From Chlorokybus atmophyticus (Eukaryota > Plantae > Mesostigma and Chlorokybus algae): a stretch of DNA of 64,000 bases. The translations under genes were made by a program, and so were the position numbers. The DNA is taken from positions 133,104 to 197,103 of the forward strand of contig RHPI01002823.1 of assembly GCA_009103225.1 (NCBI GenBank), written 5' to 3'. The notes under the pieces are model-generated. The model searched no databases, was not told the origin of the DNA, and worked only from the letters and a program-made list of their open reading frames with translations. The first letter of the stretch is position 1, and the number at the start of each line of letters is the position of its first letter. Positions 1 to 17,060 of this stretch are shown one piece after another.

Positions 1-748
1 GCCTCGTCGTCATGGTCGAAGCCAACTACCTGTCACGGGCAGGTTGGTCAGTGTCACGGTGCAGTGCGGTTATGAAGCATCACAGCACCTGACACATGAC
101 GTTACGAATAGTGTCCTCCTTGGGATAAACGTGGCTCTCTACCCAGTGGCCGTTTATGATTTCAACGACGGCATCTCGCAAATGCTGTTCACAGAAGAAC
201 AATCCGTTACAAACATACACACAGTGTCACAGTGTCACACAGTGCTTACCTCGTTGCCAATCTTCCACTTGCTTGGGGAAGGGTTGCTGACGGCCGAGGT
301 TGCCACGTCACGGCCAAATGCGTTTGGGTTGGGGGTTCCAATCGACCCTCTGCAAGCACAACCACGCGAGTCATGCTGCCAGCCATAAAAGATGCAACCC
401 TCACAGTTGCAAAAGAAGAACAACGTGCACAATGTATCCAGAACGCATGCAGTGAGTCACTGTGCTAGTCATGAAAGAAGCAAGCATCCAAGTTAGAAGT
501 TGAGCAAGAAGCGACGTGCACAGTGCATCAAGAACGCATGCAATCTAGCTTGCCCTTGCAACTGCGGTGTCAGGTGGAGTTGTTGTGATGTGATGGGCGT
601 TAGCGCGGGGTCTTGCTGCGATTGGTTGGCGACGGTTGCCTGGTTGAACACCGGGGGCAATGTGGACAACTGGCGCCGACCTCCACGACGAGGTGCACTT
701 ACGGATGGACCACGAGGCATCTCTCCAACTGATAGTCGGGTGCCGCAT
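1..748 (-). CDS. Hypothetical transposon cargo protein (runs off the window; 5' end uncertain)
   Basis: Clean GT-AG introns at 185-249 and 30-88 join in-frame exons: ...SNPSPSKWKIGNE|HLRDAVVEIINGHWVESHVYPKEDTIRNVMCQ|VVGFDHDDE. No recognisable domain. Confidence 0.5.
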
Positions 749-1028
749 GTTTAGCTGATAGTGGCGCTGCCGCCTCCAACGCTGCCGCCGACGGTTGGCC
801 CGCCCGAATGTACGAGGCGCGAAAACGAAAATGAGGCGGTTTTGAAGGTCTAGAGTCCCGCACTAGAGTCGCACTTGTAGTGCGTCCTTGCTCCTATGGT
901 TGAAAGTACGACTTATGCATTCGTGCCATCCATGCTTCGTACAACCATTGGTAACAACGGTTGTGTCGTAACATTTATGATACGACAGAGGCATCTCTCG
1001 TCCAACCCCAGCGATTGCCGTACAATGG

Positions 1029-1058
1029 CTCTGTCGTACCATCCATGGTACGACAGAG
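1029..1058. promoter_or_regulatory. GTACCAT-motif hairpin between divergent cargo genes
   Basis: CTCTGTCGTACCAT-cc-ATGGTACGACAGAG has perfect 14-bp arms. A degenerate copy of the same hairpin lies at 964-987, and TACGACAGAGGCAT occurs at 981 and 1049. Confidence 0.55.
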
Positions 1059-1313
1059 GCATTGCTCGATCAGCCCAAATGGGAGTTAGCGTGCACTCAC
1101 CCAAACACGCTTCATTGATGGCCGGATGATGGCACGCAGGGGCACCAGGTCGATGACGGGTCGAATGTCAGGCTTGATGGGCCTGGGTTCGACTAGGAGG
1201 CGGAGGACCAGGAGTCGGAGGAGGCGGCGGCGGCGGCGGCGTGGCACATCTTGCGAGAAGTTGTGGTCGTAAGAGTTCAAGCAGCGAAGCCAGCTACTAC
1301 CGGTCGCCACGTC

Positions 1314-3453
1314 ATGGATCATGGCAGGCGTCAGCAATGGGGCTGTCCAACATGCATCACCAACATTGGACAAACCAGCAGGCAAGCCATTAAAGACCAT
1401 CTTCACACAGAGAGCTGCTTGGTGGCTCGCTTTCTGCAACAGGGAGTGGATCAGGAGCTGCAGTCCTTGGAGCCCCTTGTCAGAACCATGCGGGACCAAT
1501 TGCGGCTGTGGGAACAAGCACAAAGGAATGCAGAGGTACGCTCAACAGTCACATGCATTTCCTTGCAAGAGCAATTTGTTTCTGAGCGCAGTCCATGTGA
1601 TATATGTAGCGTGGCTGCAGGCCTCCACCATTCACCCATACCCACCCTACAGTCAAGCCGACATTGCGGAAGCAAGAGCAGATAGACAGAGCTGGGCGGC
1701 GGTATGTTGTTGCCAATCTCGCTGTGCATGTTGACTGCAATGTCGGCTCCAATGCATGCCTACCTTTGCATGCTAGGATGTGCATGAGCGTGCGAAGTCG
1801 CGCGCGCGTGCCGAATCAAGTAGGCTGGGTTTGAGCACAGGAGCGCGTGGCCATTCGTCCGGCATTCAACCAATAGTGCATCAACCAGCAATGACGTAGT
1901 CCATGCAATCATTTGTGCATCAACCAGCAATGCCGCAGGTGACTGTTCGAAGCAACCAACTGATGACGGTGTGACGCAGTTTACTATTGCAATTGCAGTG
2001 TCGCAAGCATGCAGCTAACCCACATGTGATTGGTTGACAGCACCACAGTACACTAGGTCCTGTTGGAGCTCCTATGCAAGCCTGGATTCAATCCCATCAA
2101 CTGGTCCTTCAATCCCACTTGCTGATGGGTGCGGCGGCAATGCGGCATCACTCTAACATGCATGTTGGCCTGTTGAATCCCGACATGTTCATTGGGGCAG
2201 TGGCGCATGATGTGCCCATGGCTCACGAGCTCCGTGACGAGTCTGCGATCGAGGGTGGCGGGGAGAGTGCACTCAATACCACCTTGTCAGCCCCCATGGC
2301 TTCCCCTGCTCCATGTAGCCCACAGGCCATTGAGATAAGTCGCTGTCTTTTATGCTCGTGCCTTGGTAACAATGCGTCAGGCACTGCATAAGCTTATATT
2401 CGTCCTTTGCAACATTGTGAGCCATCTTATCCTGGGTCCTGTATACAGCCCCCCTTGCTGCATGCACAAGTGGTCTCACCTGCAGCTTCTGCTTCCCTCG
2501 CAGCCAGAGCGCAACCACCTTCCGCGGCACCAATCCTTCATGCACTGCCATCTCCTCCACGAGCAGCACCGGTGATTGCGGGGCAACAATCCTTCTTGCC
2601 GCTATCGGCGAGACCACAGCACAATGCAACAACCGATGTGGCTTCTACACCTACCTTACCCCACCCGCTGCAAGTAAAAGCCGGCAGTCTGCCCCAAACT
2701 CAGGTACTTTATCAGTCACTGTGACTCTTGCCGTCCACAGTTGGACACACCATTTGAGTGCTGTATGCGCATGCAGCAGGGGTCACCACCTGCCAGCGAG
2801 TCATCAAAGGAGCTGGCCGCAACCCGCATACGGCCATTAGTCATGTTAGGTGGCCAGCTCGCCTCATAGGACCACTTCAATGCGCCAACGGATGGTAATT
2901 GCTTATACCATTGTGTATTTCGCGCCAGGCCATCCATAGCGCAAAGTGACTTGGATGATCACGAGTGCCCCAGCTCGAGCAGATTATGGGCCATGCTGGA
3001 CACCATGGACGACGACGGCAGGGGGCACACTCTCCGCAAAATCACCGCCAAGGCTGTCGATGCAGGCGTGGCGAGCAGAATCGTAGACTTCTGCAGAGCC
3101 ACTGGTGCCGCGGGAGAGATGGCGCAGTATTACGACAAACTGCCTGCGACCATGTTGGCTGATGTCAACTGCAACATTGACCTAGCCATGGCCAAGGTGC
3201 GACAGATCGTGCGGAGAAAAGATGTGTACGTCGAGCACCTGCAGATGACCATGTTTGCCAACAAGCTGGGCTTGTTGATTGGCTGCGTGACCGTTCAGCG
3301 CGAGCATGGGGAGTGGGTGCCACGGCCCGGCAGCGCAGTTTGGGTTGGAAATAAAGAAGCCCCCAACTCAGTCCTGGTGGTGGGCAACACTGCTCCTGAT
3401 GAGCCAGAAGCACACTTTTGGCTCCTCAAGCCTGCAAGCACCGAACAGTGGTC
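1314..3453 (+). CDS. C2HC zinc finger + Pro/Ala-rich linker + OTU-family cysteine protease (deubiquitinase-like); 3' end lost in gap; possibly pseudogenised
   Basis: N-terminal CPTC-x14-H-x5-C. Exon ending 2703 splices in phase to 2741. OTU catalytic motif PTDGNCLYHC at ~2885-2915, VYVEHLQMTMFANKLGLLIGCV helix-strand and terminal EAHFWLL (catalytic His). In-frame TAG at 2867-2869 is either a nonsense mutation or a splice acceptor. Joining the finger to the OTU domain in one gene is inferred. Confidence 0.7.
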
Positions 3454-3885
3454 NNNNNNNNNNNNNNNNNNNNNNNNNNNNNNNNNNNNNNNNNNNNNNN
3501 NNNNNNNNNNNNNNNNNNNNNNNNNNNNNNNNNNNNNNNNNNNNNNNNNNNNNNNNNNNNNNNNNNNNNNNNNNNNNNNNNNNNNNNNNNNNNNNNNNNN
3601 NNNNNNNNNNNNNNNNNNNNNNNNNNNNNNNNNNNNNNNNNNNNNNNNNNNNNNNNNNNNNNNNNNNNNNNNNNNNNNNNNNNNNNNNNNNNNNNNNNNN
3701 NNNNNNNNNNNNNNNNNNNNNNNNNNNNNNNNNNNNNNNNNNNNNNNNNNNNNNNNNNNNNNNNNNNNNNNNNNNNNNNNNNNNNNNNNNNNNNNNNNNN
3801 NNNNNNNNNNNNNNNNNNNNNNNNNNNNNNNNNNNNNNNNNNNNNNNNNNNNNNNNNNNNNNNNNNNNNNNNNNNNNNNNNNNNN
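3454..3885. other. Assembly gap (N run)
   Basis: 432 N. Confidence 1.
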
Positions 3886-4848
3886 TAGGCATTGTACAAA
3901 GGTACCATTGAAATGGTACCTTTGTACAATGGCAATGGCAGTTCGTACCATTGACAACTCTGGCAATGTCAGTCCCCCTGCGCATGAAAACACCATTGAT
4001 AGCTCCGCCAAGCTATGCCCTTACAGGGGCGTGATGCCGAGGGTATGTGGCGTTTGGAAGATCGTTGGCGGCGCTGCCAGGGGCGTAGTGGGCATTGTGG
4101 TCGAGGTCCGGGATGAATTCCATGTTCGCACAGGGCGGGCAGGGTGCCGGAGGGGTGTCCTCGGTGTCAAACCCCACCAAGACTACCAAGGGCACATCCA
4201 ATGACAACAGTGACTCGGGCGATATCTTACAAGGCTCCCCCTCCGAGTGGGCAAAGGCACACCACAATACTGCCTCTAAGAAAATCCGACCCACCAGCAG
4301 CTGCGACCACGGCGACATGATTGAAGGGACCAAACAAGACTGGCATAACCAAGGTGGGTTACGATGCACTATCAATGCCACATGCTAGGATTCTTTTATC
4401 TTGCACATGCACAGCCTCAAGTATCTTGCACGTGACATACATTGTCGATACCACATGCACACCCTCATGCACAACCTCCAGTGTCATGCACATGAACAGC
4501 ATGACCAATCTCGCAAATGCACAGCCTATTTCTANAGGGGCTGACTCGTAGTGCAAAGGAGTCGATCACCCTACAGTACGCCCAAGACGCGCTGCATCAC
4601 CGCATGCGGCATGCCTCGAGGTGGGTGACGAAAGTTTGCAATAAGTGGGANGGTCGCAAAAGAGAAGCTGCGGAGTACCACGAACGGGTAATCCATGACC
4701 TAGTTTAATGTTCCAAGCGGTAATTAAGCAGTATGCTTGCAGATTGCCATGTTGGTCAAAGTGAACCGAGAGCAGCGCGGCAGGCTGACTGTCTGCCTGG
4801 CGGAGTGCAACAAAGCGGAAGACGAGGTAAGCGTGTGTATGCTGATGG
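3886..4848 (+). repeat. Copy 1 of a ~0.9-kb internal direct repeat (promoter hairpin + 5' exons of a helical/acidic cargo gene)
   Basis: Near-identical to 11303-12164; the ORF track gives matching peptides for both (…GGQGAGGVSSVSNPTK…, MLADCHVGQSEPR…). Copy 1 has an extra ~100-bp exon segment (4536-4650) bounded by single Ns. Confidence 0.9.
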
Positions 4849-4849
4849 N

Positions 4850-5661
4850 CAACCCGGCAATGTGCAAGAGCTATCTGCGGAGCAGAACTTCGACCTGCTG
4901 CAGCAGATGTACCTGTCGATGTCTGACAGTGGCTGTACGTCATACGGCACGTCGAGCTGATTCTGTGAAAGCTCGAAGAAAATGACGATGCGGGGGAGTA
5001 CACGAGTGACGACCGCCATGTCGAGGGCCTGGATGAACGCATGCTGGACGAGACCACCAAGACCAGCAGGTGGTGTATGGCGGCAGATGGGCAACAGGTG
5101 ATCAAGCAGGCAGTGGAGCGTTATGCTGCGCCATTCAGATGGGAGTCGCTACGCCTGCAACGCGATAACAGAGTTTGGTGGCAGAGGCAGCTTGCACACT
5201 TGCGTGCACCATGTGTGCTGATTTGTCGCATTGAAGAGCCACCCCCCCAGCGGATGGGGAGACGCCTTGTTGCAAGAAAGCGATGTGCCATGTCTGCATT
5301 ATAGCACATCAGAAGACTGTGGCAAATAAATCAAAGGATCTACAAGCGTGTCCCTTCTGCAAGCAACCTCACCCGTTTTGGTCGCCACGCCTGATGCAAG
5401 ACGCCAACATGTCGGCGGTGATTTGGCCCCCGCCTTGATGCCAATTGTGCGTGTATTGTAGTTTTGTGTTGGCTTCCTCTGAACCCTGTAAGTACACGTA
5501 TAGTTGCAGCATGGTGCACCAGAGAACTGCTGTTGTCAGAAGCATTGGCTGTACATATGTATGATGACTGCCCGGCGCATGAGTCAGTGCATGGCTTGCA
5601 TACCTCGCTGGTTTAGAGCGTGGTTGACAGCAACAAACTCGGACAGCGCTTTGGGTTCCAT
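4850..5661 (-). CDS. Hypothetical transposon cargo protein (spliced; truncated at an N junction)
   Basis: ATG at 5661 (MEPKALSEFVAVNHALNQR) with GT-AG introns leading into the open minus frame RLPSEWRSITLHCLLDHLLPICRH...HAFIQALDMAVVTRVLPRIVIFFEL. Divergent from the methyltransferase gene. No domain recognised. Confidence 0.4.
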
Positions 5662-5721
5662 GGCATGACAGCACAGTATTACTCTACGATCGTGGTAGTA
5701 TGCGAGTATCCTTATACTGTA

Positions 5722-5767
5722 GTACCATTAACAGATGGAGTACCATTCATGTTGATGTAGTACCATT
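5722..5767. promoter_or_regulatory. Triple GTACCATT direct-repeat cluster in a bidirectional promoter
   Basis: GTACCATT at 5722, 5740 and 5760 (18- and 20-bp spacing), between ATG 5661 (-) and ATG 5916 (+). Confidence 0.55.
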
Positions 5768-5915
5768 GCATGGGTTTGCAATAGCGTCCTTGGTACAGTC
5801 GTGCTTCACTTGAAGTTTGACCCATTTAGGGTTCGTAAGCTGGCAACCCTAAATTGATGCCCATACCCTAAAGTCTCGCTCAGTTTGTGGGCAGCCGTGC
5901 CGATTCCTATTTTGC

Positions 5916-7717
5916 ATGATGTCGGCGGCAGCATTTGAATCCCCCTCACCTAGGAGACCATGCTTGGTATGCCCACAATGCAATGCGTACATATGTGCCA
6001 ATGGCCGTAGGCAGCAAATGCGAGCACACTTGACCGGATGCCAGCGAGTGCAGACAGTGTGCCACGGTTCTAGTGCTGCTTGCTGGCATCACACCACACA
6101 CAATGTCGACGTGTTTCGCTGCCGCCTCGGCCAAGTGATGTGCAAGGAACCCGAGTTTTTCCATTGCGTGCAGTGCGTGTGCGAATCGTGCTCGCGCTCA
6201 TGCTTCGAGTGGCGAGGGGAACCCATGCGCTTCTTCACATGGACAACACCGGGACATGTGGTTAGTGGACAGGTGGTGGATGCTGTGGAGGTAATCCACA
6301 AGAGTGGACCGCGACGTATCACTGCATGTTATGTTGGGCATCACTGCATGTTATGTTGGGCGTATGCTTATTTCATGCATGTTGAAGCTGTTGTCGCTTT
6401 CAGAGCAGTCTTGCAAGGTGTGGGCGTGGGCAGTTCCATCCCCTGGCCGCTGTAGAGGAGGCAGACCATCGACCGTTCGACAGCGCACTGCATCGGCTGC
6501 GGAACGCAGTCAAGTTGGGATGCGAGCAGCTGATCGGTGTGAGTGTCATGGTGCATTGGCCGCTGGATGGGGAATGGTATGCGGGCGTTGTGGAATCATT
6601 CAAGCAAGCGTCAGGTCAGCATCGCTTCGTGGCGTGCGAGATTGAGGACGCATCATATATGCATGGTGCAATGGAAAATGTCTTTGCAGGGCAGCACCGT
6701 ATAGTATTCGATGACGGTGATCGACCACAAACCATCAACTTCAAAGGGCACAACGTATTCGCGTACACATCAGTTGACGGGGCACGCCATGTTCTGCGCG
6801 CCGAAGGGGAGAACGTCAACATCGCAAAGTAAGCCCGGACGGCATTATTGTTAGTCCCTGGCCAGCACCACGGCCAGCCTTGACCACATACACGCCATTT
6901 GACAACAAGCTGCACGCACACGCAGACCAAGGGCACTCGACCTATTCTGCCGCGGTGGCGGTGCCAGTGTCGGTCTATACCACGCAGGCTTTGACGTGAC
7001 CGTGATGGACATAAGTCCCTCCTCTGAGTACCCGCTGCCCTTTATACACCGCGATGTATGCACCCTGAGTGCAGGAGAGCTGAGCGAGTACGAGCTCATC
7101 TGGGCCAGTCCACCATGCCAGGGCTATTCAGGTGCTATCTCGGCACCTCAACGGGCGGCACATGGCACATCCTGGAGACACCAGGATATGATACCGCTCG
7201 TCCGACGTCTGCTGCTTGCAAGCCAGGTCAAGTTTGTGTTGAGAATGTGCCAGGAGCAGCTTCCTCATTCAGACCCAATCTGTCCCTTTGTGGCACGATG
7301 TTTGGCCTATCAACTTTCCAACACCGTCTGTTTGCGACACAGCCAGTGGTAGCTACCCCACCAGCATGCTGCTCGCACGCGGGCAAGGCGGTTGGACTGC
7401 TATCGCCAAACCTGTCCGCTAGCGCGAAGAAGACAATCGTGACATCAAACGCGCCACAGCAGATGTACCCGGTCTATGGCCTTCCAAGCACCAGGGGCGG
7501 CATTGCTGCGTGGCAAACAGCGCTGGGAGTGCCATGGATGACCTCGTCCATTTCCATAGCGAATGCATTTCCTCCCGCAGTGGCGGAGTGTATAGGGCGT
7601 CTCATGCTTGAAACAATGGATATGCGCTGTGACTACCCTCCTGTGTCATGGAACTATGAGGCTCGAGTGTGGTGCACTGTATTGATGCTTAATGCCACAC
7701 GGCGGACTGATTGTTGA
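5916..7717 (+). pseudogene. Zinc finger/Cys-rich + Tudor domain + DNA (cytosine-5)-methyltransferase of phage/actinobacterial type; one frameshift at ~7238
   Basis: CPQC-x15-H-x3-C finger. Tudor motif IGVSVMVHWPLDGEWYAGVVESF...HRIVFDDGD (intron 6615-6689). Intron 6829-6925 joins in frame to motif I LDLFCRGGGASVGLYHAGFDV, then DI-x5-YP, motif IV LIWASPPCQGYS, motif VI ENVPGA (frame shifted by -1), LCGTMFGL-x3-QHRLF, W-x2-ALGVPWM and motif X ANAFPPAVAECIG. Confidence 0.9.
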
Positions 7718-7869
7718 ATGTTGCATGGCACATTCGATTGTGGTGACAGCTGTGCAGTGACAGCAACCCGGTATTGTTCACGTCCACATGCAAAAGTCTT
7801 AGCATACGATTAGCAATGCCTAACTGACTGATATGCTCCAAACTCAGAGTAGTGAGACAAGTACATGTG

Positions 7870-10800
7870 TCACGTGGAAGTGCAGTGCACGTTCACCCAA
7901 TACTTGCCCTCTTGTACACGGGCGCTGTCCTTGTCAAACATGGGGAGCAGCTGGACAATGCCTTTTACTTGCTCCAGAGTCACGACATCGAGATGTGGAC
8001 CGCTTCGACGCTTTTCCCATTCCAGAGCGATGCACTTTGTGTCGCTCGTCACATCCAGCTTCGTGTACCAGCGGACAAACACGACCTCCTTTCCAGACGC
8101 GCTCGCCGCTACCACCCCACACCACCACGCGCAGAAAAAGGAGTGCTTGAGCCCACCACGTCACGTTCACACCGTCCTCATCACCTTCCAACTCAAGTGT
8201 AGAGAACCAAGGCCGCCCATGGAACATCCCAGTTCCGCGCGCCATGCTTACTCCTAATGTCATGTACACCGCTGCGCCTCCGTTCACCACGCGAACAGCA
8301 CGCCACCCGTCGGCCAACTCCAATTGTTCCCTCCTCAACCAGCTGTCCAGGGTGGCAGGCAGCTTGTCGGCGAATGGAGTCTTCAAGGCGACTTGGCGGC
8401 TACGCGCAGATCCGCTCCAGTTCGGGCTGGACTCCCTCCTTGTCAGCACATCCATCCATAGCAACTTGTCCGTCTTCTCCATGACATTACAGCACTGCTG
8501 TCGCGCCTGCGCCATGACCGAGCGCATCTCGGGATCCACGACCATGCCATCCTCTCTCACATATTCCGCACAGCTCCATGCCTTCAGGATACGTGCTTGG
8601 TAGTCCCGGTTGTTGCCACCACGCGCCCACCGTTTGATATTTTGGGCGTGCGTCTGCTCCATGCGGTTGGCGCTGAACCAATCTGGGTGTCCACTGCTGA
8701 CAATTGCCGGCCCAAAATGAGTGAGCTGATGCATCTTCTCGATCTTCCAACCTGACTTCTGTGCAGAATATGACGACAGTAGCGGATGCAACACTGCAGC
8801 TTTGAAGGCAGCCAGCTCGTTGTCGGCTGTGGTCAGGGTCTCTCTTGTGTGTTCATGCGCCTTGAGCAACTTCTTGTTCCACTAGGCAAGCGATGCGGCA
8901 GCAATGGTGAAGAAATCGTTGCCCTCACTATCGAGCAGCAAACCGTCTGCGAGGACCGGCAGCAGCTGCAGCACCGCCACTTTCTCCACCACCTGAAAGG
9001 AGTGGTCGGACAGGAAGAAATCTACTGTGCTTGTGGGTGCCTTCAAGTGCGAAACCCGCAGAGTCGCCTTGCATGCATTCAACCTGTGCACATCTGCTCG
9101 TGAGCACGTGTCGTTGGCTTTTGTGTTTAACACAAAAGCAACACCAAAGACGTGCCTGGCCTGCAGAATCTGTCTCGTGGATGGACGCATTCGTTCCTTC
9201 GCAGCGTCGTACACAGCAGCAAGCAGGTGGTCAACGATGCCTCCCAGCACATGCATTGCGTCAGGGGCAAGACGAGAGTAGCAGTCTGCTCCCGGCACCC
9301 GCAACTGTCGCCAACCCCACAGTGCATTTTGCTGCCAAACCACATTGCCTGGTTTCACAGAAAGCCATTCATCCTCACGAATGCCGATAATTTGACCATT
9401 ACCTCCTCGACATGCATGGAGTGCTGCTCTTTGAAAGCCTTAGCTGTCTGGCGTGCATTCCTAACACCGCTATGCAGGTCCGCCTGCAGCTGACGTGTTG
9501 CTGGTGTGTAGAAGGCCTCGGTTCTCAATTCCCGGTCCTCATCCATCTCCAACGGATCTGATTTGGTGACGAGACAAACATCGCAAGGATGTCGTGTTTG
9601 GTTGCCCGACACAGTGCGTGCAAGTGTGGCAGTCTCCTACAACACGACAAACTTAAATGTTCTACTGACAACATCCTCCATGCACTGTTTGCTGGCAGGC
9701 TGCATCCGGTTACAACCATTCATGCCCACTACCTGCAAATCGCTGATGTAGTTGGCAAGCGCGGGAAACACACGACGCTCGATGCCATTCGGGTCGATGA
9801 GCTGCAGACCTTCCCAACTCGCCCGCTTCTCATCCTCTAACACTACATTCAAAGCGTCATGAAAAATCTCACGTTTCCGAATGGAGAACGATTCCTTGCC
9901 CTGCGCCCAGGTGGGATGCCCGGCCACTGCGTGAACCACCGGCAGAAGCGCTATCATAACAACCCCCATGTTGCTAGCATACATGTCCCAACTGTAGTTG
10001 GCAAGCGATGCCATCAGAGGGTAGCCAGAGCGCTTGCCCGCGCTGTCCAGCGTGGTCTTGTCACTGTACAGAATGGCAGGCGCCAAGTAGGACGCTTCCC
10101 CCACCTCTCTCCTCAAATCCACCTCCACATCCTTCCACCAATCGCCCGTGGAAGGATGGCCAAAGCTGTGCTCGTCAGTAGTGTACTGGAGATTGAAGCC
10201 ATTGGCGGCATGTGGATTGCCATACAACTGCGCGAGCCATACCTGCTCCGACCAAGAGCATTACTTACTATGCTGGCCTTAGAATAGATACTGCATCGAT
10301 ACTACAGTAGGTACTGCATTTCACAGACCTTAGCCGGCATATATGTGACGCAGATGTCCTGATCCTCAGGGTCTCCAGGCTTGCGCAGGTCAGCCGTCGC
10401 GTAGTTCTGATACGGCAGCACACTCGCATGTGCATATGTGACATGGCTATGATGGTTGAAGCACATGCACCGCACACCGTGAACACATCTCAGACTGAGA
10501 GAAAGCAATCGTGGTCCGGAGGTAGCTGGCCACATGCACACCAGTCTCCCACTGGAGCTCTTCCGTCAGGATGAGTGCATTTCGGATGCACTTGATGATC
10601 CGCCCCATGTCGGAGGCCGACAGGCCTTGGCCGTTGTTGCACTGCACGAATGCCACTGCAAGAGCATGCTCCGAGCCATACCACCTGGATTCCGATGCGT
10701 GCGAAGGGACGCCTCCACTTCCATGTTGGCGTGCCACAGGTTTCTCAGGCACACGCACACATGGAAAGCCCTCGTTCACTTCCTCCTCCTCCTGTTGCTG

Positions 10801-11010
10801 CTGTGCGTGTGTCTCCTGGAGGAATCCTTCAGCATCAAGCATGTGAGCATCCTGGATCGAATTCCCCGGTTCAACATGACCCGCATCGTGCTGTAATGGA
10901 TGCTGGCCGACATACAGCTTCTGCTTGCACACCCTGCTGCTAATAATGTGCATGTAGACCGAGCTGCGTGTGGCGAAGCGCATGTGGCAATACGGACAAA
11001 GGACTCCCAT
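7870..11010 (-). pseudogene. Plavaka transposase with N-terminal C2HC zinc finger and C-terminal BAH-like domain; in-frame TAG at 8882-8884 and a frameshift near 8090
   Basis: Family motifs HPSTGDWW, AILYSDKTTL-x2-AG-x4-YPLMASLAN, EIFHDAL, GIERRVFPALANYISDLQ|E (intron ~9641-9732), PCDVCLV, LAPDAMH, KMHQLTHF-x2-AI-x3-G-x4-FS-x3-MEQTH-x3-IK. C-terminal VFVRWY...VKGIVQLLP. Start MGVLCPYC at 11010. Confidence 0.88.
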
Positions 11011-11071
11011 ATCTCACTACTAACATCGACACAGGTGTCGCCAATGTAACCTGCATCATATCCAGCAACAC

Positions 11072-11072
<1 letters not shown>

Positions 11073-11109
<37 letters not shown>

Positions 11110-11110
11110 G
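11073..11110. repeat. (GCC)n trinucleotide tract upstream of the transposase start
   Basis: cgccgccgcc... run. Confidence 0.9.
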
Positions 11111-11173
11111 CCACCGCTACCGCTACCCTTGCATGCCAGAGGCGGGAAACTTGGCCGCCAGTCACTGGCTCCG

Positions 11174-11368
11174 TCGTACCATTATAATGGTACGATCGAG
11201 CCATTGCACGTCCAGGGTGAGTCTGGATATGTATATATATATATATATATATATCCTGATTGAACCGTTTCAATGGTACGAAGATGCCTTTGCCAAAAGG
11301 TATAGGCATTGTACAAAGGTACCATTGAAATGGTACCTTTGTACAATGGCAATGGCAGTTCGTACCAT
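11174..11368. promoter_or_regulatory. GTACCAT-motif palindrome cluster plus (TA)n in the bidirectional promoter of the transposase and the helical cargo gene
   Basis: Perfect 22-bp palindrome TCGTACCATTATAATGGTACGA (11174-11195). (TA)n at ~11232-11254. ATGGTAC at 11273. Hairpin with 20-bp arms CATTGTACAAAGGTACCATT-ga-AATGGTACCTTTGTACAATG (11307-11348). GTACCATT at 11362. Confidence 0.6.
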
Positions 11369-12164
11369 TGACAACTCTGGCAATGTCAGTCCCCCTGCGC
11401 ATGAAAACACCATTGACAGCTCCGCCAAGCTATGCCCTTACAGGGGCGTGATGCCGAGGGTATGTGGCGTTTGGAGGATCGTTGGCGAAGCTGCCAGGGG
11501 CGTAGTGGGCATTGTGGTCGAGGTCAGGAATGAATTCCATGTTCGCACAGGGCGGGCAGGGTGCCGGAGGGGTGTCCTCGGTGTCAAACCCCACTAAGAC
11601 TACCAAGGGCACATCCAATGACAACAGTGACTCGGGCGATATCTTACAAGGCTCCCCCTCCGAGTGGGCAAAGGCACACCACAATACTGCCTCTAAGAAA
11701 ATCCGACCCACCAGCAGCTGCGACCACGGCGACATGATTGAAGGGACCAAACAAGACTGGCATAACCAAGGTGGGTTACGATGCACTGTCAATGCCACAT
11801 GCTAGGGTTCTTTTATCTTGCACATGCACAGCCTCAAGTATCTTGCACTTGACATACATTGTCAATACGACATGCACACCCTCATGCACAACCTCCAGTG
11901 TCATGCACATGAACAGCATGACCAATCTCGCAAATGCACAGCCTATTTCTACTTGCGGGAGCTCACAAGTCGCAAAAGAGAAGCTGCGGAGTCAAACGAA
12001 CGGGTAATCTATGACCTAGTTTAATGTTTCCAGCGGTAATTAAGCAGTATGCTTGCAGATTGCCATGTTGGTCAGAGTGAACCAAGAGCAGCGCGGCAGG
12101 CTGACTGTCTGCCTGGCGGAGTGCAACAAAGCGGAAGACGAGGTAAGCGTGTGTATGCTGATGG
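11303..12164 (+). repeat. Copy 2 of the ~0.9-kb internal direct repeat
   Basis: Aligns by eye with 3886-4848, with scattered substitutions and one ~100-bp deletion. Confidence 0.9.
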
Positions 12165-12385
12165 GCTAGTCCTCTGGCAGCACGCCACTCTTACAGCATT
12201 ACCAAATGCAGGTGGTCACTCTCAAAGCGACCATCAAGCGCATGCGCGTGCACGGCGAGGCGCTGACATTCAAGCTGAAGGACGAAGTAGCCGCTGTACT
12301 GTCAGCGAGCGAGGCAGCGGATGAAGATGACTCCGGCGTTGAAGCAGAAGACTCGTCGGAGGAGGAACAGGAGGAGGGGGTTTGA
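11530..12385 (+). CDS. Hypothetical helical protein with acidic C-terminus (transposon cargo; may be damaged)
   Basis: Exon-like segments MNSMFAQGGQG..., RKREAAESNER, IAMLVRVNQEQRGRLTVCLAECNKAEDE|gtaagc, ...RMRVHGEALTFKLKDEVAAVLSASEAADEDDSGVEAEDSSEEEQEEGV*. Confidence 0.45.
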
Positions 12386-12608
12386 GGAGGAGTTCTGAGG
12401 CAGGCACCACGGGTTGACAAGCTGCGCATGAGTCCGACAGCTAGACTCAATGTTATAGGATAGTTTCATGCGCAAGTCGGCTGCTCAGTTGTAAGTGGAC
12501 ATACTCTCACCACTGCCCGTACATTGTATATATTGTGGGCTTTTAGGTGCAAGACCAAACAATCAGTCCAAGGTTTGTACAAGCTGCATGGCATGTTAGT
12601 GTTGGCTT

Positions 12609-12934
12609 ACGGCAAGAATTGCCAACTTTTGTCAAACGGCAAGGGTCACATATTAACAGCAGTGTAACGGCAAAGAAACTGCCGGCTATTGCTGTCAGCT
12701 GTCCGTAACTACCGGTCAACGGCCGTCTGTGCACATCGACCAAAGGGTAACTGGTTGACAACTCTCGGCCGGTTAGTGCCACTGACAACCACTTTCGGCC
12801 CGCGGCCGTCTGCGTCAGTCCACTTAAGCCAACGGCAAACCCAACAGTCCAAAAGTAATATTTCAGGCAGCGACAGGCAGGCTCAGGCAGGCTCAGGCAC
12901 CAGTCAGTCCCTCAGTCCTTAGTCAGTCACCGTG
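12609..12934. repeat. Subterminal repeat region and candidate right terminus of the transposon
   Basis: ACGGCAA at 12609, 12636, 12667 and 12832. Short GGCAA/TTGCC and CGGCA/TGCCG hairpins at 12611-12623 and 12668-12684. CAGT/CAGG-rich repeats end in CCGTG. Confidence 0.45.
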
Positions 12935-12958
12935 TAAAATTTGCGACGAAGGAGGGTG

Positions 12959-13196
12959 CTACCGCCCCCTTTAATCCCCTACCCCAACACCACCACCACA
13001 GCTACGTCGCCGCCGCCGCTGGCAGCCAGGGGATAAATTGTGACAGGGGGACATGACTCTATTGAGGTCGCCATTGACGTGCGCAAATAGAATGTTTGTT
13101 AGCGAACATTTGAAGCACAACCATTGGCTTCAACACAATTTTGATAATGTTGGGTAGATATAAACGAAGAAGTATTCACAGACACGGTTACGGTAG
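12959..13196. mobile_element. Possible remnant of the same MITE family as 57207-58524
   Basis: 17-bp exact match GGGATAAATTGTGACAG (13030-13046 = 57243-57259). TACCCCAACAC (12980-12990) equals the TIR core. GGGGGAC motif present. Boundaries uncertain. Confidence 0.35.
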
Positions 13197-13777
13197 GCAT
13201 CTTGAATTCCGGACTATCCGTGCAAAGAAAATTGAATACGGTTTGCTGTCGAGTCTGATACACTGAATCGACTCCAAAGAGGGGGACACCACCATGAAGG
13301 GGGGATGATGTACAGACACAGCACCCACGAAGATGCTAGGTACAACATTGTCGAGATATGTACGATATTTGAGCACGAAGCACAGTAATGTATGCAGACA
13401 CATACACAACTATCTATTCCCAAAGTGTTCAAGTAGTGGCTAGGAACGAGTTTTTCCATTCTTGAAATTTGACCAAATCCACCCGTGGGGCGATACAATC
13501 TCAAGAGTGTCACATTTGTCCATGAACCCATTAAAGCCATACAATAATTGAAAGAAAGGGGCGCACAATTCGTGGCCGTATGGTATTGCGTGGCTTTTAC
13601 GGTAGCAGGTTGTGATGGAACGCGCCCTGCACCTAAACTTGTTTACAACCGCGCAACGGTTGCGGGCGGCAACACAAATGTTCTTGCATGTGATTTAGGC
13701 TTGCAGCTCTCGCATTCCTCCCAATTCCTGCCGCGATGCACCGTCCAGTTGCAGCACACAAGCACCACACCTCAATG

Positions 13778-15922
13778 TTATACACATGCAACACATACGC
13801 ATGCACGGTGAAGTGCACATGACATAAGGTTGACGCGGGAGGGGCCCTCATCTATGCACCTGTACACAGCAGGAGTCGAGTCTTGGTTCCTAGCGGCATC
13901 AATGGCACGAGCCTGCAATATGTGCAGGCCCTCTCCCACTTGAAGAGTTGTGAGTGTAGAAGCAATGACGTCTGTGGTAACATCCCATGGTAAGTACCAT
14001 CCAATCACCATGCGCGCAATGCAGTGTATGGAATTAGCTTCATGCACGTCTGCACGGTTGGTCAATCTTATACTGGTAGCTGACGCAGGTTTCAGTGGTG
14101 GCGAAGGAGAACATTGACTGAGTGTCAAAGGTTCGCGTGGAGGGTCCAGACAGCACGAAAGTGTCTGGACCGCCATTATCGATGATTCAGGAGTACTCTT
14201 CAGCCTTGTCAATGTTGCCGTTCGCGTCAATTATGCGCACGGTAAAGGTGTGCGGGCCCTCAGTGAGGTCTTGCAGGCTGACCTCATTAGGGAATGAGAA
14301 AGGCACGTATGGCCCGTTGTCGAGGCGAGACTCCTGGAGGCCGCTCTCTGTGGCAGTGATGGTGAAGAATGCGTCATCGGATGACGTGATCGACGTTGGA
14401 AAGGCCGTGATTGTCACTTCGGGCGCTACCATGTCGACGCTCCAAGTACAGTTCTTGGGTGTGGGGTACCACAGCATGTTGTCCAGCCCAACAGCACGCA
14501 CCTACTGAACAACAAGTACTTAGCCAATTGATATACACTCGGCGCTTCCAAGTTCTAGCAAACCAGCAAGCTTATCCATCACTGTGTGCAGGCCGTCCCT
14601 GACTCCCTTCACAGTGAAACTGGAGCCCTTACCCTTCTTCCACTTGGTGTTGTCGAGCTTCCACTCGTACACAAACTCGGTCACAGCAGAGTCGCGCGTG
14701 GCGAAGGGGGTGACGATTACGCCATCAGCCGTGTTGATAAACATTGCACAATGAGACGCGCAATGCAGATAAAGCAGACAGCGTATGCAGGAATCTACTT
14801 ACAGGACTGAGATGACGTCAGTGTCAGTTGGGTCCACTGTCCACTTGTACACGATGGGGTCTGGGTTGATGTTGCCAACAGCATCCAGCCGCCACAGAGT
14901 ACCAGTAGCTACCGGTAGAGAAGGTGCCGGCGGCAAAGGTTTCCTCCTGCAGGGCATGCAGCATGTTGGCGACATGTCCACCACACCAGCGTGTTCAGCA
15001 ACGCCACAAGTCACATCGTGGACCTCACACTAACCTCTGTGCACGTAGCGTTGTTGACATCACATGTTATGTATGAGGCCCCGGGCATCCACGAGTGCTC
15101 CACCTTGAACGCGCGGGCACTGTTGTCGGATGTGAACTGAATGCGCAGAGAGGTCGCAGCGGCTCCAAGCCTTTCAGTGGCAAGGAACTGAGCTCCCGTG
15201 TACTTATAATCTGCAGCAGTGAATGCATGACACGAATGGGTCCCGCGTTCAACCTCAGTTGATGCTGCTGCAGCAAAAATCAAAACAGCACGCTTGCCAA
15301 TAATCCAGCTAAAGGTATTATTGTCACCCGTGTTGCCCAAGCTGTCCCGAGCGCGGATGACAAGCTCGTACTCATCTGGGGGCAGGTCGCGGTATTCAGC
15401 TACAGAATCACCACTAGCGAAACGAATAAAGTCACTGCGCACATAGGGAGGTGATGTGGGCTCTATTGTTGAGTGCAGCACACATGGTTGAACTGCGCAA
15501 CGGCATGCATGTGACTTGCCTGCCATTGAATGCCAGTTCATATGTGCAGTCGTCGGTTTGAGGATATATCCGACTTGTAAAAGGTCTACGTGAGATAGTT
15601 GGGGTTGAGGTTTCCTGCCACGTCTTGCAATGTCATCTGCATGGAGATCATCGGCAACGCGTGGGTTGGAACACTCTGGTAAAACCCTCGTCCGACAATC
15701 TCTAGCCAGAGCTATAGCTGTCGTCAGTTCTGGTCTCAGGCTCCTGCATGGCGTGGCTGTCATGCATTTCCCAGGTCTCCTCTCCTCGTGCAAGCTCCGT
15801 CGCATGCACACATCAATCTCTCCGGTAGTTAAATTCCGGGGCTGGAGCAGCAGCGTTACTTTTGCGCAGTTCTGCCTGCTACCCGGCCTGCCTCTGCACC
15901 TCCACTCCAGCCCTGCCCACAT
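13778..15922 (-). CDS. Protein with 4-5 bacterial-type Ig/FN3-like repeats (probably extracellular); ends uncertain
   Basis: Repeated units YELVIRARDSLGN...FSWII, DAVGNINPDPIVYKWTVD, WSVDMVAPEVTIT...HTFTVRIIDANGN...YSWIID, ARAIDAARNQDSTPAVY on spliced minus-strand exons. Confidence 0.65.
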
Positions 15923-17060
15923 TGCACCAGCATTGCTGAGTTAGCTCGCATAGCCTTTTCGGGCGCCCCGTCTCTATGTTCACTGTGTCAAGGGGGTACT
16001 AGTCATGTCCTCTGTGCTTGCTTGCATTTCGGCGTGTGCGTACTCTTTGTGTGGGGACCTTGTGTTAGGCTGCACACATGTGCACGACTGTGACGTGAAA
16101 CAGTGCATGTTTCTACTGTGGTGTGGTGTGAGTGTGCGCTTGATGGTGCGAGCTGGTGGCGTCCATGCGGCTAGCAAGCCACGGTCGCATATATGGATAT
16201 AGACTGGTGCACGCACATGCATGCATGCTGCTGGCGAGGAGTTGTGTAGGTGCAAGTGAAAGGGGCAAGTAAGTGAGGTACCCCTCAGTGCGGCGAGTAG
16301 CGCTTCTGCCGCGCACTACTCTATGTCTGCATGTAGTTACTGTATTCGTTGGGGTGATTGCTGCTGTGATTGTTGCTAACCGCTGCTGTAACTGTAGTAC
16401 TAACCATGCTGACCGCTGTGACTCTTTATACGGTTGCTGATTGACACTGATGTTGGTGACCATTGTGATTGCCAGCTGCTGTCACTGCAATTCCAACCAG
16501 CTTGCTAACCTGCGAGATCGCGCCGTTTCGCGTGAGGGTTCAACTGACTCTTACCCCAAATATATCCCAGTGTGACCATACACGCCTTGACAAGTAGGCG
16601 ATGACAACCACTTGTAGCAATGGACAGCACTACCCCGCCCCCGCGCCTTGCCTTGCCTTGGCTGCTTGCTCTTGCAACTACTGATGCTACTGAACTTACT
16701 GACACTGCCTACCACAGGCCGCTGTGCTTTGGAATGGTTGGTCACAATCTGCTCCTGGCTGTACTCCTCAGCTCCCGCGCTTCCCTTGCATGCATATAGC
16801 TAAAGCACATGATGATTGTAACTTGCCCTTGCCTGGCTTGTGGCTGTGGTCTGATTGTGATGGTGTATAGGATATACGCACAAGAAGCAAGGCTGGATAC
16901 GTGAAGTGCTGTTTCGCACACGCATAGTCATGCAACATGCACACGGCAACACTACATCATTGCTATACAGATTGGTACATGGTCATTACCGGGTTAACCA
17001 CTATGACGCTATCACTAATGCTCATCCCCATTAGACATGCATGCAGGTTGTAGTTACCTA

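Follow-up and report, generated by a model that had tools for sequence, protein, structure and literature searches.

How does a cytosine-C5 methyltransferase of a compact, phage-type family come to stand behind a Tudor domain in the genome of an alga, and what carries it there? The question is raised by a gene at 5916-7717 (+ strand) of a 64,000-nucleotide (nt) stretch of Chlorokybus atmophyticus DNA (assembly GCA_009103225.1, contig RHPI01002823.1, positions 133,104 to 197,103 of the forward strand), hereafter the window, where a preliminary description had proposed a phage-type enzyme fitted with a zinc finger, a Tudor domain and introns. Here, we find that this finger-Tudor-methyltransferase gene is real and that it is carried, as part of the cargo, by a DNA transposon of the Plavaka type (EnSpm group) that measures at least 12.9 kb. 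The copy in the window is a decayed pseudogene. Intact copies, as far as sequence allows a judgment, probably encode a reader-writer fusion, in which a finger and a Tudor domain like that of RDM15 are joined to a virus-type C5 methyltransferase.

Tudor and methyltransferase share one open frame in sister copies

The predicted protein consists, in this order, of a C2HC finger, a Cys-rich segment, a Tudor domain, a linker and a compact C5 methyltransferase. Its gene was divided as follows, the introns being predicted from phase calculation and splice-site words:

5916..6290, + strand: predicted exon 1, with the C2HC finger (5970-6041) and the Cys-rich segment (about 6060-6205)
6291..6403, + strand: predicted intron 1, GT...AG, phase 0; alternative acceptor at 6433
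6404..6614, + strand: predicted exon 2, in which the Tudor domain starts at 6521, with the cage Trp and Tyr
6615..6689, + strand: predicted intron 2, 75 nt, GT...AG, in frame and without a stop, inside the Tudor domain
6690..6926, + strand: end of the Tudor domain (F-D-D-G-D) and coding linker; contains the intron 6829-6925 proposed earlier
6927..7630, + strand: compact C5 methyltransferase domain of about 235 amino acids (aa), with a frameshift at 7238 in the window copy
7631..7717, + strand: C-terminal tail, starting with DYPP as in the relatives P0123 and P0211 (by alignment); stop at 7715-7717

The finger and the Cys-rich segment lie upstream of the Tudor domain, as had been described, and the finger has the spacing C-x2-C-x15-H-x3-C; exon 1 had no family match in Pfam (two chance-level matches), PHROG or Atlas. 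We compared the window copy with contigs of public sequencing runs, of which X1 and X2 come from one sample (study P1) and X3 from another study (P2). The X1-X3 contigs are about 97-98% alike to the window, and four indels in the gene are common to all three: they have 22 nt fewer at 6318, within predicted intron 1, where the window carries a 22-nt tandem duplication, and 1 nt more after 7238, the point at which the window methyltransferase is split in two frames, while the window copy has two extra nucleotides at 6819 and is 1 nt short at 6911-6913. The three frameshifts of the window copy were thus absent in three of the four runs compared (two studies); the X4 contigs cover only 6479-6630 of the gene (152 nt) at depth 3, with no splice joint within that stretch.

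Because the X1-X3 contigs lack these three frameshifts, they hold Tudor and methyltransferase in one open frame without an intron: unspliced, this form stays open up to the stop at 7717, with the Tudor domain followed by a linker of 65 residues and the complete methyltransferase, and as the majority form it constitutes a 1.3-kb open frame. The in-frame fusion claimed in the preliminary description was therefore upheld, but the splice to which it had been ascribed was not. The intron 6829-6925 joins the frames in the window copy alone and causes a frameshift in the X1-X3 form, and so it would have compensated by chance for the lesions of the window copy. Introns as such are likely, two being predicted (6291-6403 and 6615-6689), though neither is the one that had been named. 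An in-frame 81-nt intron at 6829-6909 is possible in the X1-X3 copies and would leave the fusion unaffected.

The gene is carried by a Plavaka element

Spread by transposons had been suggested for this gene, and it indeed lies inside a Plavaka element, together with the following features:

7873..11010, - strand: Plavaka transposase gene, convergent with the methyltransferase gene; PF18759, E 4e-23
12944..12948, + strand: right end of the element (...CGACG), marked by a drop in cover and unlike flanks
1317..3453, + strand: gene A, a second cargo gene, with a C2HC finger near its start; runs into an N gap
2870-3451, + strand: OTU-protease-like segment of gene A (DGNCLY...HFW), by motif only
5722..5766: the word GTACCAT three times ahead of the methyltransferase gene, with a putative role in binding

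The hallmarks given for Plavaka transposases are D, D, E, C(2)C and H(3-4)H (PMC12730594). The transposase of the window shows D, D, C(2)C, H(3)H and E features, namely the aspartates of YSDKT and YISD, CDVC, HQLTH and a catalytic Glu, as well as an N-terminal C2HC finger; its window copy has an in-frame stop at 8882-8884 and a frameshift near 8090 (1 nt fewer in X1-X3). A word search for longer relatives of the transposase exon found none, which is weak evidence. One X1 contig spans 6287-8830 and bridges the Tudor domain, the methyltransferase and the end of the transposase. Across the region 1-16000, X1-X3 cover was even from position 1 to about 12950 and 0-2 beyond 13350, and two X2 contigs continue past 12948 with unlike flanks. 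Plavaka elements are bounded by terminal inverted repeats and a target duplication of 2-3 bp. Of the two ends here, the right one has the word CGACG, which resembles the PlavakaB end word TGATG (PMC12730594) with CG for TG, and the left one lies beyond position 1, outside the window. Moreover, 24 of the 227 X2 and X3 records were less than 90% alike to the window and represent divergent copies. Taken together, the cover edge, the unlike flanks and the divergent records fit a dispersed multi-copy family. We conclude that the gene is transposon cargo rather than a demonstrated domesticated host gene.

The three genes of the element also resemble one another in their starts. Each begins with a like C-P-x-C...H...C finger (a likeness judged by eye), and upstream of each stand GTACCAT/ATGGTAC words, often palindromes, at 1036-1051, 5722-5766 and 11176-11368. 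GTACCAT was counted 14 times in 12.5 kb of the element (three of them in a likely assembly patch) versus 10 times in the 50.9 kb outside, and the shared finger or the transposase may bind at these words. The OTU label of gene A had no Pfam match, and its PDB search gave E 1.6; as an OTU segment also occurs in a methyltransferase-reverse transcriptase polyprotein (P0296, see below), methyltransferase and deubiquitinase may be a recurring mobile pair.

The repeats at 3886-4535 and 4652-4848 copy 11303-12164 at 98% and 96%, respectively. That they might be long terminal repeats was ruled out, since N borders them and X1-X3 lack them there; for the same reason they are likely scaffold patches, which could mislead annotation. 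Near the right end, at about 12050-12385 (+ strand), lies a short spliced-looking gene with an acidic tail and no family match. The X1/X2 and X3 runs, which carry two organism codes and belong to two studies, have the same indels and substitutions across the element, a sharing that may reflect one species under two labels, a mixture or recent transfer. The window as a whole is eukaryotic, intron-rich and about 53% GC, with host genes that include a GT47 exostosin and a methionyl-tRNA synthetase. Beyond the element, a host gene at 13988-15558 (- strand) encodes repeated extracellular-type modules, and here the X4 contigs show several intron-sized joints.

The Tudor domain resembles the H3K4me1 reader RDM15

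The Tudor domain with its aromatic cage, as proposed earlier, proved to be real. Its sequence contains the words WPLDGEWY and FDDGD, and its unspliced frame matched PDB 7DE9, the Tudor of RDM15 (RDM15/PDS5 type), with an E value of 3.7e-5; the match falls into two pieces with an overlap on the target side. Removal of 6615-6689 makes the alignment gap-free, with a W-to-F/Y spacing of 25 in both proteins and with W, Y, F, D and D in register: W616, Y623, D643 and D645 of RDM15 are identical and Y641 is F, so that five of the six key residues checked are kept. The domain also led to Tudor-clan clusters in Atlas (0.83-0.87). A single-sequence fold of the unspliced Tudor gave a predicted local distance difference test score (pLDDT) of 40, and a word search for longer relatives of the region found none, which again is weak evidence. 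RDM15 of Arabidopsis reads monomethylated lysine 4 of histone H3 (H3K4me1), and its Glu647 binds H3R2 (PMC8184781). By this likeness, the W/Y/F cage and the two aspartates of the window Tudor would bind mono- or low-methylated lysine such as H3K4me1.

The methyltransferase belongs to a compact viral family

In C5 methyltransferases, S-adenosylmethionine (SAM) binds motif I and the cysteine of the PC motif attacks C6 of the flipped cytosine, while the ENV glutamate and the motif VIII arginine assist catalysis. The corresponding motifs run in order I-X on the + strand of the window gene:

6936-6965: motif I
7113-7121: catalytic PCQ
7241-7249: ENV
7319-7327: motif VIII, Q-H-R
near 7560-7600: motif X

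The words on which the preliminary description relied are all present (LDLFCRGGGA, DI-x5-YP, ASPPCQ, ENV, LCGTMFGL, WQTALGVPWM and AFPPA-x4-IG), with the correction that the last has x4 and not x3. Of the two halves made by the frameshift, the N-half matched 305 of 50,697 phage records (best 47%) and the PHROG family phrog_363 at E 2.8e-16, and the C-half matched 175 phage records (best 39%). Against PF00145 the N-half, a half-domain query, reached 19.3 bits (E 8.5e-4), below the cut-off of 22, which many full-length relatives pass. A word search returned 296 matches among 553 candidates; in the 120 matches listed, the relatives are 186-333 aa long and none has a reader domain. A profile of the window halves and 25 compact relatives had C5 methyltransferases as its best PDB matches; it matched DNMT1 chains at E 8e-4 or weaker. 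DNMT2 chains reached E 1.5e-5, whereas the E value for the compact family was 1e-21.

The enzyme was also said to differ from the DNMT1, CMT, DRM, DNMT2 and DNMT5 layouts, and this holds. A rearranged motif order is a feature of DRM, and DNMT2 and DNMT6 have a layout without companion domains, whereas the window protein has such domains. Pfam scans of the window found no BAH/RFTS, chromo, SNF2 or PWWP domain, and the motifs of the enzyme are not rearranged; BAH/RFTS, chromo and SNF2 are layout features of DNMT1/CMT and DNMT5 (PMC12344493).

With respect to activity, the window enzyme keeps PC, ENV, the motif I glycines and the second motif VIII Arg when compared with 120 relatives. The catalytic C and EN are invariant in 120/120 of these, and the third position of motif I varies (G, C or K), the window sequence FCRGGG being a glycine-rich SAM loop. 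At three sites that are invariant in the relatives the window differs, with V for G (7003), Q for R and A for E. In the X1-X3 contigs 7003 encodes the invariant G, and the F at 7568 likewise reverts to the family residue. X1 differs from the window at 42 sites, and the 32 of them that are listed do not include the window codons for the motif VIII Q and the following A. Six of the eight listed substitutions in the methyltransferase domain change the residue, as expected for a drifting window copy. In the alignment, the nearest relatives have a much longer target-recognition region than the window enzyme.

The nearest relatives are longer than phage enzymes

A protein search with the C-half gave 468 matches, and six of the top seven were longer proteins, hereafter the extended relatives. 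These have in common with the window enzyme the clade words QM[YF]P[VI]YG..RG....W and a QR..HG..W.H insert, two of them share the DYPP tail, and the RTRRP directly before motif I of the window resembles GTRRRP/GVRRRP of P0123 and P0211. Among 23 longer matches scanned, P0123 had a methyl-CpG-binding domain (MBD) above the cut-off (E 2e-6) and P0211 and P0125 had weaker MBD matches; in P0238 a zf-CW domain (E 8e-10) is fused N-terminally to an extended-clade methyltransferase. In addition, P0296, a cluster mate of one match, is a methyltransferase-reverse transcriptase-OTU polyprotein, which implies that the compact family has also entered retroelements.

Trees were built without a canonical DNMT outgroup; they combined 15 extended rows with 45 compact rows, taken from 350, and with three or two eukaryote-like rows. 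A quick mixture-model tree grouped the window with the 15 extended rows (Shimodaira-Hasegawa-like approximate likelihood ratio test, SH-aLRT, 93). The LG+G4 tree made without the long row P0264 grouped it with the 15 extended and two retroelement rows (97.1/97), and an LG+G4 tree joined it to the MBD subgroup and the two retroelement rows (79.7/94). In agreement, a profile of the 15 extended rows scored the window at 235 bits, whereas one of the 15 best compact rows reached 205 and those of 20 random sets reached 179-206.

The clade words, searched as a DNA pattern, gave one match in the window and 0/100 in shuffles. In viral contigs there was one match, on a giant-virus metagenome-assembled genome (MAG) contig. 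In metagenomes there were eight, two by chance and six being such methyltransferases on intronless contigs (one contig the same as the viral match, two near-identical), and in prokaryote genomes four, none a methyltransferase. A structural model of P0123 (pLDDT 83) matched C5 methyltransferases in 48/48 PDB rows listed, and its best viral fold match was a Pithovirus LCPAC201 methylase (E 1e-16, 27%); given this match, overlap with the published viral orphan DNMTs is possible. Other scans were negative within their reach: in viral contigs, single-protein scans with the transposase exon, the N-half, P0121 and P0125 each yielded no locus, nor did that with the C-half in metagenomes; of 160 viral loci rows from alignment scans, not one had the extended-clade signature; and no fetched protein or locus matched the Tudor domain or the transposase.

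Judged by these sequence comparisons, the enzyme belongs to the compact phage family phrog_363 and groups with the extended relatives. The horizontal acquisition proposed earlier is supported in so far as the catalytic domain is foreign and of virus type. The phage-type label was accordingly right as to a compact, virus-type family and wrong as to the nearest relatives, which are longer and not actinophage enzymes. As the enzyme groups with longer relatives, of which one lies on a giant-virus MAG contig and others have MBD or zf-CW domains, a giant-virus route appears likelier than direct transfer from phages. We infer an origin in the compact phage family, followed by passage through protist giant viruses, capture by the transposon and addition of a host-type Tudor domain.

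Several further arrangements were seen in the family. In P0123, P0125, P0211 and P0271, the subgroup nearest the window enzyme, an MBD-like domain is inserted inside the target-recognition region and not at the tail. A protein with an MBD (E 6e-5) is encoded at L168:3656-5530 (+ strand), two genes away from an extended-clade methyltransferase. P0124, P0135 and P0272-P0285 have tandem double compact-family methyltransferase domains in one polypeptide of 441-471 aa, and in P0296, P0253 and P0184 the methyltransferase is N-terminal in a reverse-transcriptase polyprotein with OTU that reads as DIRS-like.

A proposed reader-writer and its alternatives

We propose that intact copies would make one protein, consisting of a zinc finger, an RDM15-like Tudor and a compact virus-type C5 methyltransferase, that it would methylate cytosine in a SAM-dependent manner by the standard PC/ENV/Arg chemistry, and that the Tudor domain would aim this methylation at nucleosomes with low methyl-lysine. 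The C2HC finger, common to the three element genes, may tether the protein to element DNA, perhaps at GTACCAT. The transposon could in this manner set its own methylation state, either for self-regulation or as a disguise as host-methylated DNA.

A number of observations weigh against this proposal or the origin suggested for it. The window copy has three frameshifts in the gene and a stop and a frameshift in the transposase, the X1-X3 contigs that lack the former may be from another strain or species, and the depth of contigs is not a copy number. In the tree the window sits on a long branch (0.97) and the mixture-model tree came from a quick search; the giant-virus label derives from one contig name and one fold match, and Pfam and NCBIfam scans of L160 genes found no viral hallmark among those covered. 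In the Tudor domain Pro stands in place of RDM15 Glu647, and since that Glu binds H3R2 the mark bound may differ from that of RDM15. In the enzyme, the first motif VIII Arg is Gln in the window copy and the invariant Glu five residues after it is Ala. The CpG observed/expected ratio is 0.77 inside the element versus 0.76 outside, and ratios so equal leave no footprint of self-methylation and give no hint of a target sequence.

Some of these points would suit a weak or dead methyltransferase fold kept as a DNA clamp or decoy, which together with the Tudor domain guides the transposase or shields the element from silencing. Motif VIII reads Q-H-R for R-x-R, and this and the change of the next Glu to Ala affect residues invariant in 120/120 relatives; the shortness of the target-recognition region and the missing CpG footprint point the same way, and DIRS1 methyltransferase domains have been described as likely inactive (PMC4738411). 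We nevertheless hold such a role to be unlikely, given that PC, ENV, the motif I glycines and the second Arg are retained, that the one invariant-site change open to checking (7003) is private to the window copy, and that two A>G and one C>A are among the X1 differences not listed, kinds compatible with restoring both residues.

The gene could instead be a neutral passenger, in which a Pack-type capture of viral and host fragments produced an accidental fusion that is now decaying. The proportion of residue-changing substitutions in the methyltransferase domain (6/8) is what the lack of selection would give, and the protein searches found no close eukaryotic orthologue. Against such a passenger, however, the majority form keeps its 1.3-kb open frame and the catalytic motifs, the cage of its Tudor domain is complete and its introns are plausible, and the like finger and like upstream word on all three element genes are signs of a built cassette; in red algae and fungi, moreover, Plavaka elements retain DNA-modifying cargo according to the sources cited below. 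This explanation therefore strikes us as quite improbable. Still less credence attaches to a domesticated host DNMT (for instance a ChloroDNMT-like or orphan enzyme), or a piece of an endogenous giant virus, that happens to lie beside a transposase. The predicted introns and plant-type Tudor do look host-like, the nearest relatives look viral, and orphan DNMTs of viral origin have been reported in eukaryote genomes (PMC12344493), but the cover of the gene rises and falls with that of the transposase and stops at a terminus-like word, none of the genes in the 12.9 kb was recognised as viral, and PWWP, which ChloroDNMTs often have (PMC12344493), was not detected in the window. On balance we favor the reader-writer fusion carried as Plavaka cargo.

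Significance

A broader reading, which we offer tentatively and hold to be rather doubtful as a whole, is that a hitherto undescribed methyltransferase lineage passed from phages to giant viruses to algal transposons, gained reader domains repeatedly, and that in this alga a high-copy DNA transposon thereby writes 5-methylcytosine (5mC) in trans on active host chromatin and so contributes to the host methylome. If true, the readers gained would be MBD, zf-CW and, here, an H3K4me1-type Tudor. Cytosine methylation is normally a host tool against transposons, and an element with its own 5mC writer and a reader of an active mark would reverse the roles. Such a route from phage to giant virus to transposon would be a way for new methylation systems to enter eukaryotes, and it would fill a gap in the account of DNMT evolution, as this lineage is found repeatedly with MBD, zf-CW or Tudor, unlike the published orphan DNMTs of viral origin, which are described as generally without companion domains (PMC12344493). 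With a catalytic domain of about 235 aa, the protein would also be a small natural reader-writer fusion for probing how transposons use host epigenetics.

Comparison with known systems

What appears to be new here is the combination of this enzyme, reader and carrier; transposon-borne methyltransferases with readers have already been published. In our literature search, no DNA transposon with a C5 methyltransferase-Tudor cargo came up, although the Bostrychia and EpiLTR supplements and Iyer 2011/2014 may list such cases. On the side of the enzyme, the compact phage C5 methyltransferases (phrog_363; actinophage "DNA methyltransferase") have the same catalytic motifs and family words as the window enzyme and, among the matches listed, stand alone at 186-333 aa. 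The extended forms share its clade words and DYPP and have a middle that is 70-150 aa longer, with MBD in some, which the window enzyme lacks. On the side of the reader, the likeness to the RDM15 Tudor (PDB 7DE9; PMC8184781) extends to the cage aromatics and both aspartates, gap-free after splicing, and the difference is that RDM15 is not fused to a methyltransferase and has E647 where the window Tudor has Pro.

As to the carrier, SymbioLINE-Dnmt, SymbioDIRS-Dnmt3 and charophyte Dnmt3 (PMC5890265) place a C5 methyltransferase on a transposable element, as here, and the EpiLTRs (bioRxiv 10.64898/2026.05.21.726589) combine one with a chromodomain reader. Those retroelements carry DNMT3, DNMT4-sister or orphan enzymes (PMC5890265; bioRxiv 10.64898/2026.05.21.726589), whereas the window has a DNA transposon with a separate gene, predicted to bear introns, for an enzyme of the compact phage/giant-virus family. 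In Ectocarpus a Tudor domain is found on Gypsy-10, and Sola1-1 has ParB and an N4C/N6A methylase on the strand opposite its transposase (PMC12477816); there, Tudor and methylase each have an element of their own and the enzyme, unlike that of the window, is an amino-methyltransferase (PMC12477816). The fungal TET/JBP-carrying PlavakaB (PMC12730594) has like transposase motifs, a like terminus word and a cytosine-modifying cargo, but its cargo oxidises 5mC whereas that of the window would write it. Similar in plan are the giant Plavaka elements of red algae with the accessory genes PAG1-3 (bioRxiv 10.1101/2025.02.11.637652), which likewise have several cargo genes, a methylase with a chromatin domain and mostly decayed copies: PAG2 pairs an N6-adenine-type methylase (PF01555) with SET (bioRxiv 10.1101/2025.02.11.637652), and the element of the window pairs a C5 cytosine enzyme (PF00145/phrog_363) with a Tudor domain and a C2HC finger and adds an OTU-like gene.

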